64,000 bases of DNA from Candidatus Bathyarchaeota archaeon (lineage in GTDB: Archaea > Thermoproteota > Bathyarchaeia > 40CM-2-53-6), in the NCBI GenBank assembly GCA_963833125.1, contig CAWHWX010000005.1, forward strand, positions 32,001-96,000. Direction: 5' to 3'. The notes beneath the pieces are model-generated. The model saw nothing but the letters and a program-made list of their open reading frames with translations. It had not been told where the DNA came from and ran no database searches. Below are positions 6,462 through 44,379 of this stretch, one piece after another. Made by a program: the position numbers and the translations under genes. How positions within the stretch are numbered: the stretch's first letter is position 1; the number at the start of each line of letters is the position of its first letter.

Positions 6462-6690
6462 GTGGTTGAGCGGACTGGGTTGAAGAAGAAGCGGTTCTTC
6501 GTAGCAATCGACTTCTCCCGGTACAAGGGGAGATACGTGGCGGTGGTCGGAAGGAGGGTCGTTGCTAGCGGAACGAACTGCGAAACAAGTGTGGTTAGAA
6601 GCCAAGAGGAAGAATCCTTCAGCTCGGCCAGAACTTCACAAGGTCCCGAAGGGCGAGACTCTCACGTGGTCCGATCGTACGCCGCAGTAG
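6462..6690 (+). CDS. DUF5678-like small protein, frameshifted near 6578
   Basis: YKGRYVAVVGRRVVASG continues in another frame as AKQVWLEAKRKNP...KVPKGETL. Confidence 0.7.
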
Positions 6691-6728
6691 GGCAATGAGA
6701 TTGATTTGATGCCGTGGCCTAACTGGTC

Positions 6729-7259
6729 TTACAGTTTTCTGAGGTATTCGAGTATCGTGCGATAGTCATCTTCGCTCAAACGCCAGCCTGCTCTTCGCAT
6801 CTCAGTGAGTTTTCCCACTGCTTCATCTCTTCGCATCTCACCTTCTTGATACATCCTTCCGAGCAGGTAACCAGTCCCGTGACATTCTACCTGCATCAGT
6901 CTAGCAGTGGACCTCGCAGCGTGGTCATCCGCGATCAGGATTCCGTCGAGTTCCTTGGCGATGGCGAGTGCCTCAGCTTCAGCTTTGTGCAGAGGCTTGT
7001 TTTCGCCTTCGACAGCGATCTTCATGAGCCTCTTGACTTCCGAGGCGCTGCGAGGTCGAGTAAGTATGAGCGCGGCTTCTTCAACAAGTTCCCGTATTAC
7101 TGCGACCTCTGGCTTCCCTTGGGCTTCGCCGGCCAAGAGTTCTTCATAGACGCTTTCGGGCAAGAACTTCTTGTTCTGTAACTTCCTTAGAGCTTCCGCC
7201 AGCGAGGCCCTGATTATGTAAATCACTGGAGTTGTGTCGAAGACTAGGGGCTTCGTCAA
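6729..7259 (-). CDS. PIN-domain (DUF3368/VapC-like) toxin
   Basis: VFDTTP, ESVYEE, AEAEALAIAKE, ADD..AR, GTGYLL. Confidence 0.88.
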   Translation of the reverse strand: MTKPLVFDTTPVIYIIRASLAEALRKLQNKKFLPESVYEELLAGEAQGKPEVAVIRELVEEAALILTRPRSASEVKRLMKIAVEGENKPLHKAEAEALAIAKELDGILIADDHAARSTARLMQVECHGTGYLLGRMYQEGEMRRDEAVGKLTEMRRAGWRLSEDDYRTILEYLRKL

Positions 7260-7267
7260 ACCGCGCG

Positions 7268-7570
7268 CTACTCTTTCTGTGCTGCCTCGAAGTCTTCGAT
7301 GAATTGCTCCGCCGAATACTGTATTGGTATCCTTCTTTTCTCGAGTTCTTCGAGAAATTCCCAGATGGAGCGGTTGGCGAGACCGGCGGCTTTCAGGGCT
7401 GTGACTCTTCCCGCTTCGTACAGGCTTATCGCTTTCCCAAGTCTCCATTCTCTGATGTACAGGTCGGTTGCGCGGGCTATCACTGAAGACTTGTCGAGCT
7501 TCTCCTCGAGCGCGATCCGCTCGATCTCACGCGCAACCTCCTTTGGTAATCTTGCCGCCACTACCTCCAT
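7268..7570 (-). CDS. UPF0175 family antitoxin with RHH N-terminus
   Basis: AISLYEAGRVTALKAAGLA.RSIWEFLEEL; lies directly upstream of the PIN gene. Confidence 0.88.
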   Translation of the reverse strand: MEVVAARLPKEVAREIERIALEEKLDKSSVIARATDLYIREWRLGKAISLYEAGRVTALKAAGLANRSIWEFLEELEKRRIPIQYSAEQFIEDFEAAQKE

Positions 7571-7835
7571 TAGCCGGCTCTTTGCCAAATCACGCACCGT
7601 TTACATTAGTTAACTATGTTTACAATCATTTAAGGCGTTCGTCCCAATTTAAGCCTCAAACGGAAGAACAAGATAACGATCTACTACGCATGATACAGCG
7701 AGCTCTTAGCTGCGACTAGCTGCAACCCTGAAGATAAGAAATCACGATCAACCAAAGAGATTGATGATTCCTGGTAGGTAAGCTGTAACTTCTAGGTGTT
7801 ACCTGCATCAACTAGTCTTCGCTTGAGGACGACGT

Positions 7836-7884
7836 TTATAGGACCGCTGCGGACGACGGCCGACCGAACCTACCAAAGGAGGTA
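7836..7884 (+). promoter_or_regulatory. Putative TATA box (TTTATA at 7836) and SD (AAAGGAGGT) for the DIP1984-family gene
   Basis: Motifs seen upstream of the ATG at 7896. Confidence 0.5.
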
Positions 7885-7895
7885 TTGAAAAAGAT

Positions 7896-8384
7896 ATGAA
7901 ATTATTCGAAGCCCTCGCCCTAAAGAAAGCTCTCCAGAACCAGTTAACCCAACTCATCAGCATTAGAAACAGCACATTCGAGTACCCCGAAGACGAGATA
8001 CCTGAATTCAATTTCCAAGAGCTTACTAGTCGAATAAAAGAAAAAGTGAACGAAATTACAGGCTTGAAACTTGCCATCATGCGAGCAAACATGACCAGCA
8101 AACTACCCAACGGATACACACTAAATGAGGCAATCATTGAACTCGCAAATATCAGGTCCGCCGTAGATCAATTTCAGGACCTATTACAAATCGGAAGAAG
8201 CCGCTTCCTCTTCAGCGAAAGGAGACGAAATACCACAGAAATCAAAACAATAAAGCAGGCAGCTCCCGACAAGATCCTAAAGATGATTGAGCAATACGAC
8301 ACCAAACGAATACTCTTCGACGCAATCATCCAAGAAGCAAACCACACAACCGAGATCAACTGGCCACAAAACAGCAAACAATGA
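7896..8384 (+). CDS. DIP1984-family ('septicolysin'-annotated) coiled-coil protein
   Basis: MKLFEAL N-terminus, TEIK motif and IQEANHTTEI C-terminus fit the family consensus (MKLAEAL...SEIK...IQEANWTTEL); strong SD. Confidence 0.85.
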   Translation: MKLFEALALKKALQNQLTQLISIRNSTFEYPEDEIPEFNFQELTSRIKEKVNEITGLKLAIMRANMTSKLPNGYTLNEAIIELANIRSAVDQFQDLLQIGRSRFLFSERRRNTTEIKTIKQAAPDKILKMIEQYDTKRILFDAIIQEANHTTEINWPQNSKQ

Positions 8385-8406
8385 AACAATTCCTCCACAG
8401 GCGAAT

Positions 8407-8604
8407 GTGAAGGGGAGATCAGGGAAAGAGCGAGACGAAAGCTGAAAGACCTGCTAACTTGGTACCTAGCGTAGAGGCGCTTGCTTCAAAACTCATCAGA
8501 TCCTCCAACTCAAAGATCAGACGCGTTCAAAGACGCAGATTACAGCTCAAAGATCAACCCAAGGGCTGCAACTCTCGGTCGCTCTGAACCTGACCCCAAA
8601 TCAC
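8407..8604 (+). ncRNA. Putative structured RNA: long interrupted stem enclosing four YTCAAA(GA)..CAGA repeats
   Basis: Nested pairings GTGA/TCAC, GGGG/CCCC, TCAGG/CCTGA, AGAGCGA/TCGCTCT, CGA/TCG, CTTGG/CCAAG; repeats at 8485, 8509, 8526, 8546. Confidence 0.6.
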
Positions 8605-8638
8605 TCAAGAAAAATCGTCCTCTAGTGAATGTAGGCAA

Positions 8639-8944
8639 ATGAAAATCGGGAGTTGGGACATTTACATAGGGTTTCTGTACTCCAGCCTGCCGGCGGATTG
8701 GAAAGGTCTGGAGCTAGATGAAGCATTCAAGCGAGGAAGACCGGTATGGCAGATCATTGGCGTGCACCTCTGGCATGACAGCACCGACGAGGTGAGAATG
8801 TTTGAAATCCACCTGAGTCGGAAAAATGGAGCCCGAGTATCTTACCGTCACCTTCCAGCATTCTGGATTGCGATGACCTGCAAGTGTGACGAATGTAAGC
8901 ATGTAAGAAGGAAGAGGAAATTGAAAACTATGAGGAGCAACTAG
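8639..8944 (+). CDS. Hypothetical protein with CxCxxC and a basic tail
   Basis: ATG-initiated 101 aa ORF; no family recognised. Confidence 0.5.
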   Translation: MKIGSWDIYIGFLYSSLPADWKGLELDEAFKRGRPVWQIIGVHLWHDSTDEVRMFEIHLSRKNGARVSYRHLPAFWIAMTCKCDECKHVRRKRKLKTMRSN

Positions 8945-9501: not shown

Positions 9502-10236
9502 TTACTTTTTCGCTGTCTTACCTCGTTTCTTCATCGCAAAGTACGCTACGGCTGCGATGATTACGATTACTAGGATTATGGCTGCTAGGGTTGTGGGGTC
9601 GGGACCGGTGCTCGTCGACTGCATGGTCGCAGTGGAAGTTTGCATCAGCGTCTGAACCATCTGCTGAGTCACCGTGGAGTACGCGACCATCGTAACCATT
9701 GTCGGAGCCGATGCGGAGAGGTTCGCGTTCACCTGTGCGACAACGGTTGAGGTTGCTAAGTTGTTCACGACCAAATCATACACGCCATCGGCGGGAATCG
9801 TAACCGTGAAGTTGTAGGACATTGTCCCTTTCTGGCTTGCGACCAGGCTTGCGGGCGTGCAGTTTCCGCCTGCGACGATCTGGTGGCTCCAAGCTTGAAA
9901 CGCCGGCGCCGTCATGAGATAAACGTCAACGTTACTGTTCGCGGAAACGGATCCACTCAAAACCGCATTCGCTGTCCCGTTGAACGCCTGAACAAAGTAG
10001 ACACCACACACACCATGCGTGCCAGGTATGGTGACGGACCCAGCGAAGACTGGCGTCGACCCTCCCTGAACCGTGGTTAAGGTCTGCGTTCCTAGGGTTA
10101 CAGTGCTCACTTGGCTACTCGTAGCGAGACTGGTGACAGTTATGGTTGAATACTGCTGGCTCTGCACGACCTGAGCAGCAGAAAGGAGAGCAACGACCAA
10201 GATGAGAGCGGTGATGAAGTGCTTCCCGTGATTCAT
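9502..10236 (-). CDS. Secreted, C-terminally anchored Ser/Thr-rich protein with a beta-sandwich (GOLD/emp24-like) domain
   Basis: Signal peptide, VDVYLM...GVYDLVVNN, C-terminal TM plus basic tail. Confidence 0.75.
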   Translation of the reverse strand: MNHGKHFITALILVVALLSAAQVVQSQQYSTITVTSLATSSQVSTVTLGTQTLTTVQGGSTPVFAGSVTIPGTHGVCGVYFVQAFNGTANAVLSGSVSANSNVDVYLMTAPAFQAWSHQIVAGGNCTPASLVASQKGTMSYNFTVTIPADGVYDLVVNNLATSTVVAQVNANLSASAPTMVTMVAYSTVTQQMVQTLMQTSTATMQSTSTGPDPTTLAAIILVIVIIAAVAYFAMKKRGKTAKK

Positions 10237-10537: not shown

Positions 10538-11230
10538 ATGCGCAAAGCCGTCAGTTACCTCGTCCCGCTAATGCTACTGGCCCTCATGGCTCTAACCCCG
10601 GTTCACGCCTCAACCGAGCCCTCAATCCCAATCAACGGACGCTACTCAGTCTTAACGATCAAAATCTTCATCCCCACCTTCCCCAAGTGGGCGCATGATG
10701 TTGTTCTAAACGCAACCATCGCATGGAATAAGGCTCAGTTATGGAACCTCCAGAACAACCCCACCGCGACGTTGTACAATTTCGTTGAGACAGATGACGG
10801 CACCGCAACTTCAATCGTCAGCTTCTCAATGCCCGCTGCGTACGCTTCAATCGCGGTTGGTTGGACCATGTTCAAGTTTGCGCCGGGTTCACGAACCTCG
10901 ATAGTCTCAACCCAAACCTACCTCACCCCAACAGTCTTCAACGCTGCACAGGGCAGCAACGCGACTGCGAGGAGCTATGCGTTTTGGCTCGCCCTACATG
11001 AGCTCGGCAGGATTCTGGGTTTGGGTAGCATACTCGATGGGAAAGACATTATGGAACCAAGGTACACCACCGCTAGAATTACCCAAGTACCAAAGCTCTC
11101 GACACTCGACCTCTACGCAATACATGTACTGGCCCAAGGCAGTGCCCCGACCTTCGTAACCCTACCCGACGGAGTCCAAGACCAATTCACTCCGGTGACG
11201 ACCTTCCTCGAGTCGTCCCCATCTAGCTGA
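10538..11230 (+). CDS. Secreted matrixin/metzincin-like protein with a degenerate zinc motif
   Basis: Signal peptide; HELGRILGLGS and Met-turn DIMEP. Confidence 0.75.
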   Translation: MRKAVSYLVPLMLLALMALTPVHASTEPSIPINGRYSVLTIKIFIPTFPKWAHDVVLNATIAWNKAQLWNLQNNPTATLYNFVETDDGTATSIVSFSMPAAYASIAVGWTMFKFAPGSRTSIVSTQTYLTPTVFNAAQGSNATARSYAFWLALHELGRILGLGSILDGKDIMEPRYTTARITQVPKLSTLDLYAIHVLAQGSAPTFVTLPDGVQDQFTPVTTFLESSPSS

Positions 11231-11328
11231 TACCGCCTAAGCAAGGAAGATATTCCACAGCCTTTTCGCCCAGTCCAGTTGGTAAGCGCCTTTCCTTGTT
11301 CTTGTCAATTAGCAAGTAAGCAGACCGT

Positions 11329-31361: not shown

Positions 31362-32903
31362 TCAATCTATCAGAGCAAATTGTGCATCTGCGCTGGCTAG
31401 GAATGTACCCCCCTGTGAAATCAGCTTGTCGGAGACCAGGGCATTGACCGTATAAACTCCGATAGGGTGGTTTACCAAGGTGAACCCAAGTCCATCTTTG
31501 ATTGTTCCACCTGCGTCGAGCTGGGATATATGTATCTGAATCTGCACGGGCACTCCGTTCGGGTCACGCACCTGAATCCAGACTACGCCTTGGAATGTGA
31601 CGCCGATATTCTCGATTACAACCCAAATCCATATCGTCTGTCCTTCTGTAAACGTAGATGTTGGATTGCCGGCGCTATCACCCGCGTAAACCGCTTTGAT
31701 TATGACGCTAGGTGTTGAAGATGTTCCCACTACGAATGTGGTGCGTGTGGTTACGCTTGAGTAACCTGATTTTGTCGCCGAAGTGAAGACGGTATATGTT
31801 CCTGTTGGCGAGCTGGGTGGGAGGCTGACTTGGGTTTGGAATATGCCCGCTGCATCCGTTTGAAGGTTGTTCGCAAAGAATAGTTGGCTGCCGGTTGAGG
31901 CGTCAACTTGCACTGAAACGGTAACTCCAGCGACTGCGCTCCCGGTTGAATCCGTCACTTGGCCCTGGATGGTGACTGTTGAGTTTGGCTGGTATTGGGG
32001 TTGATCCGTTGTTACGGTCATAGTAAGTGTGGTTCCAAGTGAGACTCTCGTTGTCGCGTTAGCGCTGGTGGTTATGCCAGTCGGAGCCAGTATTTGCAAA
32101 CTCACCTGGCTCGTTAACTCCCTTCCGTTGACAATCGCCACGGCCGTCACTGCATAATTGCCGGCAGGGGTGTCGGCTGACGTAACTATAGTTAGGCTAG
32201 ACAAGAAGTCGCGCGTGGCTACGCCCACGTTTGGTGTAAAGATTGCGACACTATCCGGAGGCACACCTCTGGCAACTAAGAAGATGTTCGCTGCTGAGTT
32301 CCCGACAATGTGCATGTCGAATTTGGCAAATGTGCCTGCTGTAATAGTGTCTGAGGGCGGTTGGATTTGGAGAGTAAGCGAATTCGTGTTGTTGGCTGAG
32401 ACTGTGTTTCCACTTTGGGCAGTTACGGTCGAGGTCTGGGACAAGGTTGTAGTAACATTTGAAGTAGAGCCGCTCGCTTCAATTGTGAAGGATGCGGTGG
32501 TTGAGGAATATTGCACAAAACCTACTTTCGTTATCTCGAAGATGCCGGTGTAAGTGCCCCCGCTTAGGTTTGCTTGTACTGTCCCGCTGCCGCCTGAATC
32601 AGTGTCAAGAGATCCTAACTGTAGTATTGCCGAGGGGGGAGAGGATACGAAGATTGATGTATAGGTTGAATCCGCTGTGGCCTGATTCAGTTCAACGGAA
32701 AGTTGGCCGGTGTTCAGATTAATTTGAACCGTACCCGAAGCTGAAGGAGGGTCCGTACTTACCGCCGCTCGAGTTAGCTGAATCGTTAACGTACTGTCAG
32801 CCGAGACGTTTGTGATCGTGCCACTTGTTTGGAGCGCTGATACTGCAGTTAGAAGAAGCAAGAGTAACGCGGTATTGGTTCGGGAACGTGTCACAATGCT
32901 CAT
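31362..32903 (-). CDS. Secreted Ser/Thr-rich multi-Ig (MG2-like) protein
   Basis: Signal peptide; TTDQPQYQP..TVTIQGQVTD...TGTYTV. Confidence 0.82.
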   Translation of the reverse strand: MSIVTRSRTNTALLLLLLTAVSALQTSGTITNVSADSTLTIQLTRAAVSTDPPSASGTVQINLNTGQLSVELNQATADSTYTSIFVSSPPSAILQLGSLDTDSGGSGTVQANLSGGTYTGIFEITKVGFVQYSSTTASFTIEASGSTSNVTTTLSQTSTVTAQSGNTVSANNTNSLTLQIQPPSDTITAGTFAKFDMHIVGNSAANIFLVARGVPPDSVAIFTPNVGVATRDFLSSLTIVTSADTPAGNYAVTAVAIVNGRELTSQVSLQILAPTGITTSANATTRVSLGTTLTMTVTTDQPQYQPNSTVTIQGQVTDSTGSAVAGVTVSVQVDASTGSQLFFANNLQTDAAGIFQTQVSLPPSSPTGTYTVFTSATKSGYSSVTTRTTFVVGTSSTPSVIIKAVYAGDSAGNPTSTFTEGQTIWIWVVIENIGVTFQGVVWIQVRDPNGVPVQIQIHISQLDAGGTIKDGLGFTLVNHPIGVYTVNALVSDKLISQGGTFLASADAQFALID

Positions 32904-43402: not shown

Positions 43403-44179
43403 GTGTCTAGTTTGGACCTGATTGACGCGATTATACTGGCGGTAGTTGAGGGACTGACTGAGTTCCTGCCCGTTTCGTCAACAGGCCACACAATTCTTGC
43501 AGCCGCGCTGCTGAACATCGCCCAGACGCCATTTGTTAAGAGTTTCGAGCTCTCACTCGAGTTTGGTTCAATCCTCGCAGTCGTAGTGCTCTATTGGAGA
43601 TACTTCTTGGATCTTGAAGTTCTCAAACGTCTGGTCGTCGCCTTTATCCCCACGGGCATAGTTGGGTTACTGATTTACAATTTCTTCAAGGACGTGCTTT
43701 TCGGAAATGAACAAATCGTTTTGTGGGCGTTACTCTTGGGAGGTATTTTCATTATTCTATTCGAATGGCGGTACAAGGAACGTGCAGGGGTCGATGACAT
43801 ATCTAAAATTCCATACCGAGATTGCCTGCTCATCGGCCTATTTCAAGCGGTGTCTGTGATACCTGGCGTTTCCAGGTCGGCCCCCACGATCATGGGCGGT
43901 TTAGCTTTGGGTATGAAGCGGCAAACAATCGTCCTATTCTCATTTCTGCTCGCGGTGCCGACTATGATAGCGGCTTCAGGGTTTGACCTTGTAATGTCCT
44001 ACAACGAATTCTCGTCCGGCCAAGTGGAGCTGTTGCTCGTCGGATTTGTTGCTTCCTTCCTCGTCGCCATACCCGCCATCAAACTGTTTCTAGGCTATGT
44101 AAGGAAACATAACATCATTCCGTTCGGCATCTACAGAATTTTATTGGTTATCGTGTTTTACTTCTTCGTAATCCTCTAA
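43403..44179 (+). CDS. uppP: Undecaprenyl-diphosphate phosphatase (BacA)
   Basis: VEGLTEFLPVSSTGH, PGVSRS, FSFLLAVP. Confidence 0.95.
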   Translation: MSSLDLIDAIILAVVEGLTEFLPVSSTGHTILAAALLNIAQTPFVKSFELSLEFGSILAVVVLYWRYFLDLEVLKRLVVAFIPTGIVGLLIYNFFKDVLFGNEQIVLWALLLGGIFIILFEWRYKERAGVDDISKIPYRDCLLIGLFQAVSVIPGVSRSAPTIMGGLALGMKRQTIVLFSFLLAVPTMIAASGFDLVMSYNEFSSGQVELLLVGFVASFLVAIPAIKLFLGYVRKHNIIPFGIYRILLVIVFYFFVIL

Positions 44180-44247
44180 CCCAATTGGGGTTACGCGATC
44201 TGATTCGGTACGGTAATCTATTCGGTTTGATATGCGTGGCTTGGTTT

Positions 44248-44379
<132 letters not shown>

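Follow-up and report, generated by a model that had tools for sequence, protein, structure and literature searches.

The gene and the element behind it

The stretch of DNA analysed here (the window) comprises 64,000 nucleotides (nt) of a Candidatus Bathyarchaeota archaeon, positions 32,001 to 96,000 of the forward strand of contig CAWHWX010000005.1 in the metagenome-assembled genome (MAG) GCA_963833125.1, referred to below as G000. The locus under study contains a gene of the DUF6847/DIP1984 family, which is widespread and without established function, and directly behind it a non-coding element that folds back on itself. With a probability of about 0.7, this element is a circular non-coding RNA of ~180-197 nt, excised at a motif of the bulge-helix-bulge (BHB) type and linked to the DUF6847/DIP1984 gene in Bathyarchaeia. 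The initial annotation, made from the letters of the window, had proposed a hairpin-enclosed non-coding RNA beside the gene. A structured RNA tied to the gene is indeed present, but the base of the hairpin had not been recognised as a BHB splicing motif, and the RNA appears as a circle in a metatranscriptome contig. The features of the locus are as follows.

7827-7841, + strand: promoter-like block, a purine-rich stretch resembling a transcription factor B recognition element (BRE) with the TATA-like TTTATAG (7835-7841), 61 nt before the ATG; putative promoter.
7878-7882, + strand: GGAGG, a Shine-Dalgarno-like site read in the sequence and kept in aligned relatives.
7896-8384, + strand: gene of the DUF6847/DIP1984 family for an all-helical protein of 162 amino acids (Pfam match, AlphaFold model); the stop codon ends at 8384.
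8385-8406, + strand: short spacer from the stop codon to the splicing motif, without a TATA-like word.
8407-8410, + strand: 5' strand (GUGA) of the outer BHB helix, pairing with 8601-8604; A8411 is unpaired.
8412-8415, + strand: 5' strand (GGGG) of the central BHB helix of 4 base pairs (bp), pairing with CCCC 8594-8597.
8416-8418, + strand: 5' bulge AGA; predicted cut 8417|8418.
8418-8599, + strand: predicted excised RNA, a 182-nt circle (RNA contig joining 8599 to 8418).
8419-8462, + strand: 5' strand of a long imperfect rod, beginning with the inner BHB helix UCAGG (8419-8423) and continuing with AGAGCGA, CGA, CUUGG and others.
8464-8558, + strand: conserved core with two hairpins and single-stranded motifs.
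8555-8593, + strand: 3' strand of the rod, with CCAAG 8559, UCG 8575, UCGCUCU 8579 and CCUGA 8589.
8594-8597, + strand: 3' strand (CCCC) of the central helix, read in the sequence.
8598-8600, + strand: 3' bulge AAA; predicted cut 8599|8600.
8601-8604, + strand: 3' strand (UCAC) of the outer helix, from sequence and fold.

Every stem of the initial annotation was recovered by direct reading of the sequence, at the positions it had given, and the nested stem as a whole is the minimum-free-energy fold of 8385-8640. From the outside inward the pairings are GTGA 8407/TCAC 8601, GGGG 8412/CCCC 8594, TCAGG 8419/CCTGA 8589, a GAA/GAA internal loop, AGAGCGA 8427/TCGCTCT 8579, CGA 8436/TCG 8575 and CTTGG 8458/CCAAG 8559, the first paired base (8407) lying 23 nt past the stop codon, as had been described. 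The closed circle would be a rod in which 8419-8462 pairs imperfectly with 8555-8593 over ~25 pairs; the loop CCCCAA+A would close one end, and the far end would open into the 95-nt core.

The core contains an invariant hairpin at 8468-8481, ACCUAGCGU..GCGCU (AGCGU-AGAG-GCGCU), and the stretch UUGCUUCAAA, which is likewise invariant among loci. It also holds three (Y)UCA..GAUC motifs, with GAUC at 8499, 8515 and 8552, and the motif AGAUUAC (8537-8543), which reads AGAUCAC in most relatives. The second core hairpin (8523-8536) shows compensatory changes at 7/7 pairs and has the loop GAAA in many loci. Four related units had been described in this region; they begin at 8485, 8509, 8526 and 8546, with the spacing of 24, 17 and 20 nt first reported. 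Of these units, the (Y)UCA..GAUC parts alone are kept in relatives; the TTCAAAG of unit 3 is a hairpin loop peculiar to the window's clade.

Conservation and covariation

The gene was found in three of 60 relatives of G000 (91, 84 and 73% identity), and in these three the downstream element aligns through ~8598-8620, while the flanks beyond diverge. A metagenome scan with an alignment of 16 proteins yielded 30 loci, and a covariance model was built from 25 elements. With this model the element is recovered immediately behind the gene and in the same orientation, in the window as well as in 29/29 fetched loci whose contig runs past the gene (130-238 bits). Four loci lack a match: the contigs of L038, L039 and L042 end inside the gene, and L041 is a gene fragment only.

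The model-based alignment comprises 28 elements (27 distinct) with 44 modelled pairs. Standard pairs fill 87.7% of the cells in these pairs; sliding the partners by 1-3 columns lowers this to 30-42%. Compensatory changes occur in 23 of the 44 modelled pairs, and the observed covariation score was reached by none of 500 column shuffles. A MAFFT alignment, which was not fitted to the structure, agrees (86.7% paired; 13 pairs, 44 cells). Stem sequences are largely different in the most distant members (L033, L034, L036, L037 and L040), which nonetheless fold into the same long rod. The covarying closing stem that the initial annotation had proposed to look for is therefore present across the loci compared, where the element is conserved, structured and tied to the gene. 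A mutual-information scan for pseudoknots and long-range pairs gave, beyond the modelled helices, phylogenetic signal only.

Nucleotide conservation of the core exceeds that of the coding sequence (CDS) in 27/27 comparisons with the window, and the rod diverges faster yet stays paired. Since the core is more conserved than the CDS, beyond what splice sites need, the excised RNA probably has a function of its own. A coding role for the element was considered and rejected: circle lengths are not multiples of three, 1-nt and 5-nt indels occur, and the loci share no reading frame. On the circle, the longest run without a stop codon ranges from 32 codons to endless, on strands and in frames that vary among loci.

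The bulge-helix-bulge motif

A 4-bp helix between two 3-nt bulges is described as the BHB motif recognised by archaeal splicing endonucleases (PMC7714728, PMC5829648). This arrangement is found at the base of the element, where the helix GGGG 8412-8415/CCCC 8594-8597 is accompanied by the 3-nt bulges AGA and AAA on opposite strands, each located 3' of its helix strand. The canonical arrangement exists on the + strand only. Amongst the aligned loci the central helix is GGGG/CCCC in 23/28; the exceptions are L034, with the compensatory AGGG/CCCU, L018, with a G-U pair, L013 and L040, with AGGG/CCCC, and L037, where the helix is shifted by one. The 5' bulge is AGA in 25/28 loci, and the 3' bulge begins with A in 28/28. 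The inner helix (5 bp) is conserved and covarying in all 28 loci, reading UCGGG/CCCGA or UCAGG/CCUGA (variable pair GC in 21, AU in 6). The parts of the BHB motif are thus the most conserved portion of the stem, and L034 forms a textbook example of it.

The genome carries two endonuclease (EndA) genes of PF01974 (84.1 and 52.3 bits) and a gene for the ligase RtcB (574 bits). The heterotetrameric type of endonuclease, found mainly in the TACK superphylum, is described as accepting relaxed BHB motifs (PMC7714728, PMC5829648), and such motifs are reported in PMC5829648 as cut only by endonucleases of broad specificity. Bathyarchaeia belong to this superphylum, and the two EndA paralogues of G000 fit the heterotetramer of broad specificity.

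The BHB rule was checked on the tRNAs of the same genome, using 22 intron candidates of 10-200 nt called by ARAGORN. A strict BHB motif with the cut after the second bulge base fits 6/22 of these candidates and the mirror arrangement 0/22, and the rule yields the canonical 37/38 intron for tRNA-Val(CAC) and tRNA-Val(GAC). With introns allowed, ARAGORN called 29 of the 35 tRNA genes of G000 intron-bearing. Several of the introns called are implausibly long (>800 nt), one of them at C5:75436-76379 (window 43436-44379). Many of these calls are likely over-calls; the genome nonetheless seems rich in tRNA introns.

An RNA with joined ends

One public peat metatranscriptome run yielded a single contig on 7700-8950, 157 nt long, 99% identical to the window and with a depth of 3.4. 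It covers 8546-8599 and then 8418-8520, so that the joint goes back 182 nt, and it enters neither flank. Its one mismatch (G>A at 8474) lies in the loop of the invariant hairpin, where relatives also vary. The junction coincides with the bulges of the BHB motif, after the second base of each (AG|A 8416-8418 and AA|A 8598-8600). The ends are therefore joined at the predicted cut sites, in a single strandless contig and with an ambiguity of 4 nt. A contig of this kind is what a 182-nt RNA made of 8418-8599 would give if it were circular or repeated in tandem. No tandem duplication was found in 30 DNA sources (the window and 29 loci), each of which has one forward-strand match to the model. The circle lengths predicted for the relatives are 181-197 nt. 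The run covers the element and none of the CDS; as it consists of contigs, it is uninformative on expression of the gene.

Transcription

A promoter-like block (TTTATAG, TTTAATAG or close variants) is located ~58-62 nt before the start codon in 23 of 24 readable loci, the window included. It takes the form GACGACGTTTATAGG or GAATGAAGTTTAATAGC and is followed by a GGAGG-like site. L034 is the exception, with only a TATA-like word 46 nt before the start. Of 27 loci measured, the window among them, none shows a TATA-like hexamer within the spacer or the final 40 nt of the CDS, and 5-48 nt separate the stop codon from the central helix. With a promoter-like block conserved before the gene, none before the element and a short gap between the two, the element is probably co-transcribed with the gene. 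The co-transcription proposed in the initial annotation is accordingly kept as probable, on the sequence evidence given here.

The DUF6847 protein

The 162-amino-acid protein matches Pfam DUF6847 (PF20935) with 52.4 bits (E 6.9e-14; cut-off 27), whereas its score for NCBIfam NF038048 (DIP1984_fam), 65.4 bits, is under the cut-off of 70. The gene is therefore filed under the Pfam family, as a divergent member by the NCBIfam model. An AlphaFold model built with 16 relatives as input (predicted local distance difference test, pLDDT, 81.7) has four long helices and one short. Its sole significant match in the PDB is 3KDQ (Foldseek E 6e-5; template modelling (TM) score 0.74-0.80), an unannotated protein of Corynebacterium diphtheriae solved with four chains, to which the protein is also matched by profile-to-PDB sequence comparison (E 0.007). 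It thus resembles this DIP1984 family member in Pfam match and fold; it differs from other members in being an archaeal protein below the NCBIfam cut-off, within an isolated archaeal clade.

A homodimer model of the protein scored 0.62, against 0.00 for the best control, with a contact agreement between runs of at least 98% and a partner pLDDT of at least 84. That mark is reached by 20/30 proteins solved as one-chain pairs and by 1/23 solved as single chains. Since the homologue 3KDQ is solved with four chains, this result may come from the model's having learned that structure. Scans of defence and phage libraries gave weak matches alone (PtuB, E 0.004; phrog_25222, of unknown function, E 1.5e-4). 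The label 'septicolysin' is a frequent annotation in the DIP1984/DUF6847 family; none of the papers given by the literature search names DUF6847, DIP1984 or PF20935, and all of its matches came through this label.

Distribution, copies and neighbouring genes

Genomes of relatives with the module bear the titles of Bathyarchaeia or Bathyarchaeota MAGs. A match to Pfam DUF6847 was seen in 0/400 other genomes sampled across the phylum, and the sole match among 14 control genomes is in a bacterium, Deinococcus radiodurans. A scan of a species-level genome collection gave three loci only, all in Bathyarchaeia. A profile search of 1.84 billion representatives gave 212 relatives at E <= 0.001 and 8 at E <= 1e-30. 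Judged from these searches, the archaeal clade is a small isolated offshoot of the larger DUF6847 family. Among viral contigs no relative was found, and tblastn of two distant representatives against plasmids found nothing.

G000 holds a single copy of the element (BLAST and covariance model), so it is not a dispersed miniature inverted-repeat transposable element. Among the 60 relatives, full copies are found only beside the gene, together with three partial or degenerate relics. At L057 (G019:C62), the 3' end of the element is repeated in direct orientation over 76 nt, at 2886-2961 and 11160-11235, with 89% identity. This repeat brackets a segment of 8.3 kb that is rich in toxin-antitoxin-like genes (UPF0175, PIN, DUF3368, MazE-like), and no integrase was found among the ten open reading frames (ORFs) scanned inside it. 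At L055 (G004:C48) 141-339 and L052 3452-3657 there is a second, degenerate copy (112.9 bits) with small core deletions, inverted and ~3 kb from the intact one. This inversion may explain why an ORF of 101 amino acids lies upstream of the gene there and after the element in the window. At L054 (G021:C121, 1501-1594, - strand) the core is intact (98.9 bits), the 3' strand of the rod has diverged but can be recognised, and the 5' strand of the rod and the DUF6847 gene are lost. This copy abuts an ORF homologous to window 6462-6698 and looks like a recent deletion relic.

Comparison with known RNA classes gave little. The Rfam scan found no match at gathering thresholds in the whole window; a permissive scan of 8300-8700 gave two small nucleolar RNA models on the - strand (E 3-4, far below gathering), and the default ARAGORN scan of the window found no tRNA or tmRNA. 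The readings as a guide-like array or an RNA antitoxin, suggested for the repeated units, lack the regular tandem repeats by which such arrays and type III antitoxins are defined (Tandem Repeats Finder reported no array). C/D box, hammerhead and kink-turn candidates, sought by eye, were rejected: most relatives lack the motifs seen in the clade of the window, which are UGAUGA/CUGAUGAG (- strand) and CUGA (+ strand). Anti-Shine-Dalgarno mimicry (GAUCCUCC) was also rejected, the motif not being conserved.

The toxin-antitoxin genes nearby had been taken as a hint of a conflict or defence role. Such neighbours are not conserved across loci and therefore add little to the functional reading; apart from one ORF family (9/29 loci), the neighbouring ORFs are toxin-antitoxin-like and clade-specific, and the contexts of the module vary. 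In the window, a UPF0175 antitoxin-like ORF (7268-7597) overlaps a PIN-like/DUF3368 ORF (6729-7448) within 6729-7597 on the - strand. The pair matches the PADLOC candidate system PDC-S70 and is not kept beside the module in other loci. The ORF of 101 amino acids at 8639-8944 (+ strand) has no match in Pfam, NCBIfam, PADLOC or PHROG and stands beside the module only in the closest relatives (4 loci). Further downstream, 9502-10236 (- strand) encodes a protein rich in Thr, Ser and Val that has a C-terminal hydrophobic anchor and matches no family, and 10538-11230 (+ strand) a secreted-looking matrixin-like protein (Peptidase_M10, 24 bits).

Proposed mechanism and alternative explanations

Cleavage at BHB motifs and ligation by RtcB are known to yield circles from the introns of tRNAs, from rRNA precursors and from a few further RNAs. 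At the present locus, a promoter near 7835 would drive one transcript carrying the CDS and, as part of its 3' untranslated region (UTR), the element. The base of the element would fold into the GGGG/CCCC helix with the bulges AGA and AAA, the outer helix GUGA/UCAC and the inner helix UCAGG/CCUGA. The tRNA-splicing endonuclease would cut each bulge behind its second base (8417|8418 and 8599|8600), and RtcB would join the ends of the excised piece into the 182-nt circle. We infer that EndA and RtcB are the enzymes acting on the RNA of the element, and that the circle, rather than the spliced mRNA, is the functional product.

What this product does is a matter of more tentative proposals. The dimeric DUF6847 protein might bind the repeated GAUC-containing motifs of the circle, which would serve it as a stable RNA partner; on the present evidence this is possible rather than probable. 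Slightly more doubtful is the stronger form of the idea, that the circle is the obligate RNA subunit of a two-part particle of nuclease-resistant circular RNA and protein, encoded by a mobile gene-plus-RNA cassette and possibly toxin-antitoxin-like or defensive.

Several observations weigh against this reading. The circle rests on one low-depth contig from one run whose contigs are strandless, and its junction shares AUCA (ATCA) on both sides, which makes the position ambiguous by up to 4 nt. AUCA is also present elsewhere in the element. The motif is imperfect in the window, where the extra unpaired A8411 faces the 3' bulge. The outer helix has 4-5 bp in the window, L010, L021, L034 and L037 and is weak or absent in most others, so the 3' cut site in those relatives is a prediction and their motifs are to be called relaxed. 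The folding energy of the + strand is unexceptional (z = -0.98, equalled by 30/200 shuffles), and the - strand folds more stably (z = -2.58 in the window, with a lower energy in 21/23 stem-only constructs). Finally, no other gene that might point to a function is consistently adjacent to the module, the best being one ORF family without a Pfam match in 9/29 loci. Folding energy alone would not convince; that the element is more than chance follows from its conservation and covariation.

The main rival is a template-switch artefact. A junction inside a 4-nt repeat could be produced by template switching of the reverse transcriptase, and the RNA of the element would then be linear, either as a structured 3' UTR or as a stable molecule of its own, the back-join arising at AUCA or, otherwise, from a rare tandem duplication in a related strain. 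The single contig of depth 3.4, the 4 shared nt, the several copies of AUCA in the element and the weak outer helix of most relatives are all in keeping with this explanation. It is nevertheless considered unlikely, as the two AUCA copies joined are precisely those at the BHB bulges and the register is the one predicted by the rule, while the contig enters neither flank and the 30 DNA sources contain no tandem duplication. Moreover, a plain stem would need far less conservation than is seen in the central helix, the 5' bulge and the inner helix. Hardly different in likelihood, if marginally less favoured, is an excision that is real and acts purely in cis, the element being a 3' UTR intron whose removal controls how stable the DUF6847 mRNA is or how its 3' end is formed, and the circle a by-product. 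The archaeal mRNA BHB introns of cbf5 and HVO_1309 are discussed in this way in PMC7714728, and the element probably lies on the transcript of the gene. Recognition of splice sites, however, requires neither a 95-nt interior conserved above the CDS in every comparison nor the invariant single-stranded motifs found in it.

Two further explanations are given far less credence. The element might act mainly as DNA, serving in recombination or attachment or marking where a mobile module ends, and the partial copies in G019, G004 and G021 and the varied contexts of the module would agree with this. Yet compensatory changes keep the pairing along the 25-bp rod and the element is found as RNA, while no integrase was found in the ten ORFs scanned of the G019 segment and no match among viral contigs; a role as DNA is thus very improbable. 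Least probable of all is a functional RNA on the - strand, a convergent antisense RNA facing the 3' end of the gene, to which the lower folding energies and the larger number of G-U pairs on that strand would point. The - strand is G+U-rich, which lowers energies regardless of function. The consensus structure has 94 G-U cells, which pair on the + strand only, against 53 A-C cells, which pair on the - strand only; RNAalifold gives -35.6 for the + strand and -29.7 for the - strand, and the reverse strand gets no more than 16 bits from the covariance model. The GAAA loops, like the canonical BHB arrangement, are found on the + strand only. Excision of a circular RNA from the + strand is therefore retained as the best explanation.

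Relation to known systems

Two archaeal mRNA BHB introns are on record in the account of PMC7714728. The intron of HVO_1309 (Haloferax) measures 46 nt, lies in the 5' UTR and was recovered after excision as a circular RNA; the cbf5 intron (Crenarchaeota) is the only other one reported up to that paper. The present element resembles both in having a BHB motif within the transcript of a protein gene, with the cut attributed to the tRNA-splicing endonuclease. It differs from them in its position after the stop codon, its length of 181-197 nt, its covarying rod, an interior conserved above the CDS and its tie to one gene family.

BHB-matured circles that may have a function of their own are also described. 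They are the circular signal recognition particle (SRP) RNA of Thermoproteus (PMC4731332), the box C/D RNA in the tRNA-Trp intron and the circular pre-rRNAs, stable and maybe functional circles made by EndA and a ligase (PMC4731332, PMC12558985). The element would share with these the passage from a BHB-flanked segment to a circular RNA; it matches neither SRP, C/D box nor any other Rfam family, and its place is behind a protein gene rather than within a tRNA or rRNA. The omega RNAs of IS200/IS605 elements, located behind tnpB in Halobacterium, have circular isoforms and, according to the authors of PMC12558985, no BHB motif. They are comparable as structured non-coding RNAs at the 3' end of a protein gene with circular forms in an archaeon, tnpB being the partner in that description, whereas the present element has a BHB motif, a 162-amino-acid helical DUF6847 protein and no transposon ends.

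A different parallel concerns the way of working. RNAs with repeated motifs bind several copies of a small protein in type III toxin-antitoxin systems (ToxIN-like) and in the CsrB/RsmZ sponges, and this matches the mode of action put forward in the initial annotation, as a proposal only. Unlike a type III antitoxin, the element lacks tandem repeats of equal length and lies downstream of the gene, not upstream behind a terminator; its processing would fall to the splicing machinery of the host, not to the partner protein.

Judged from the searches made, a pairing of gene and circular RNA of this kind appears not to have been described before. The locus would represent a conserved structured circular RNA that is encoded behind, and inherited with, a gene of a family so far without a known function in uncultivated Bathyarchaeia, and a case in which a gene cassette uses the splicing machinery of its host to obtain a stable RNA. 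It offers a new RNA family for databases and, for the DIP1984/DUF6847 proteins, the hypothesis of RNA binding. Were the circle a by-product, the element would still be a third kind of mRNA-borne BHB intron and, as far as the literature search shows, the first in a 3' UTR. Should the partner reading be true, it would provide the first function for the DIP1984 family, and the circle would be the first archaeal circular RNA known as the dedicated partner of a specific protein.

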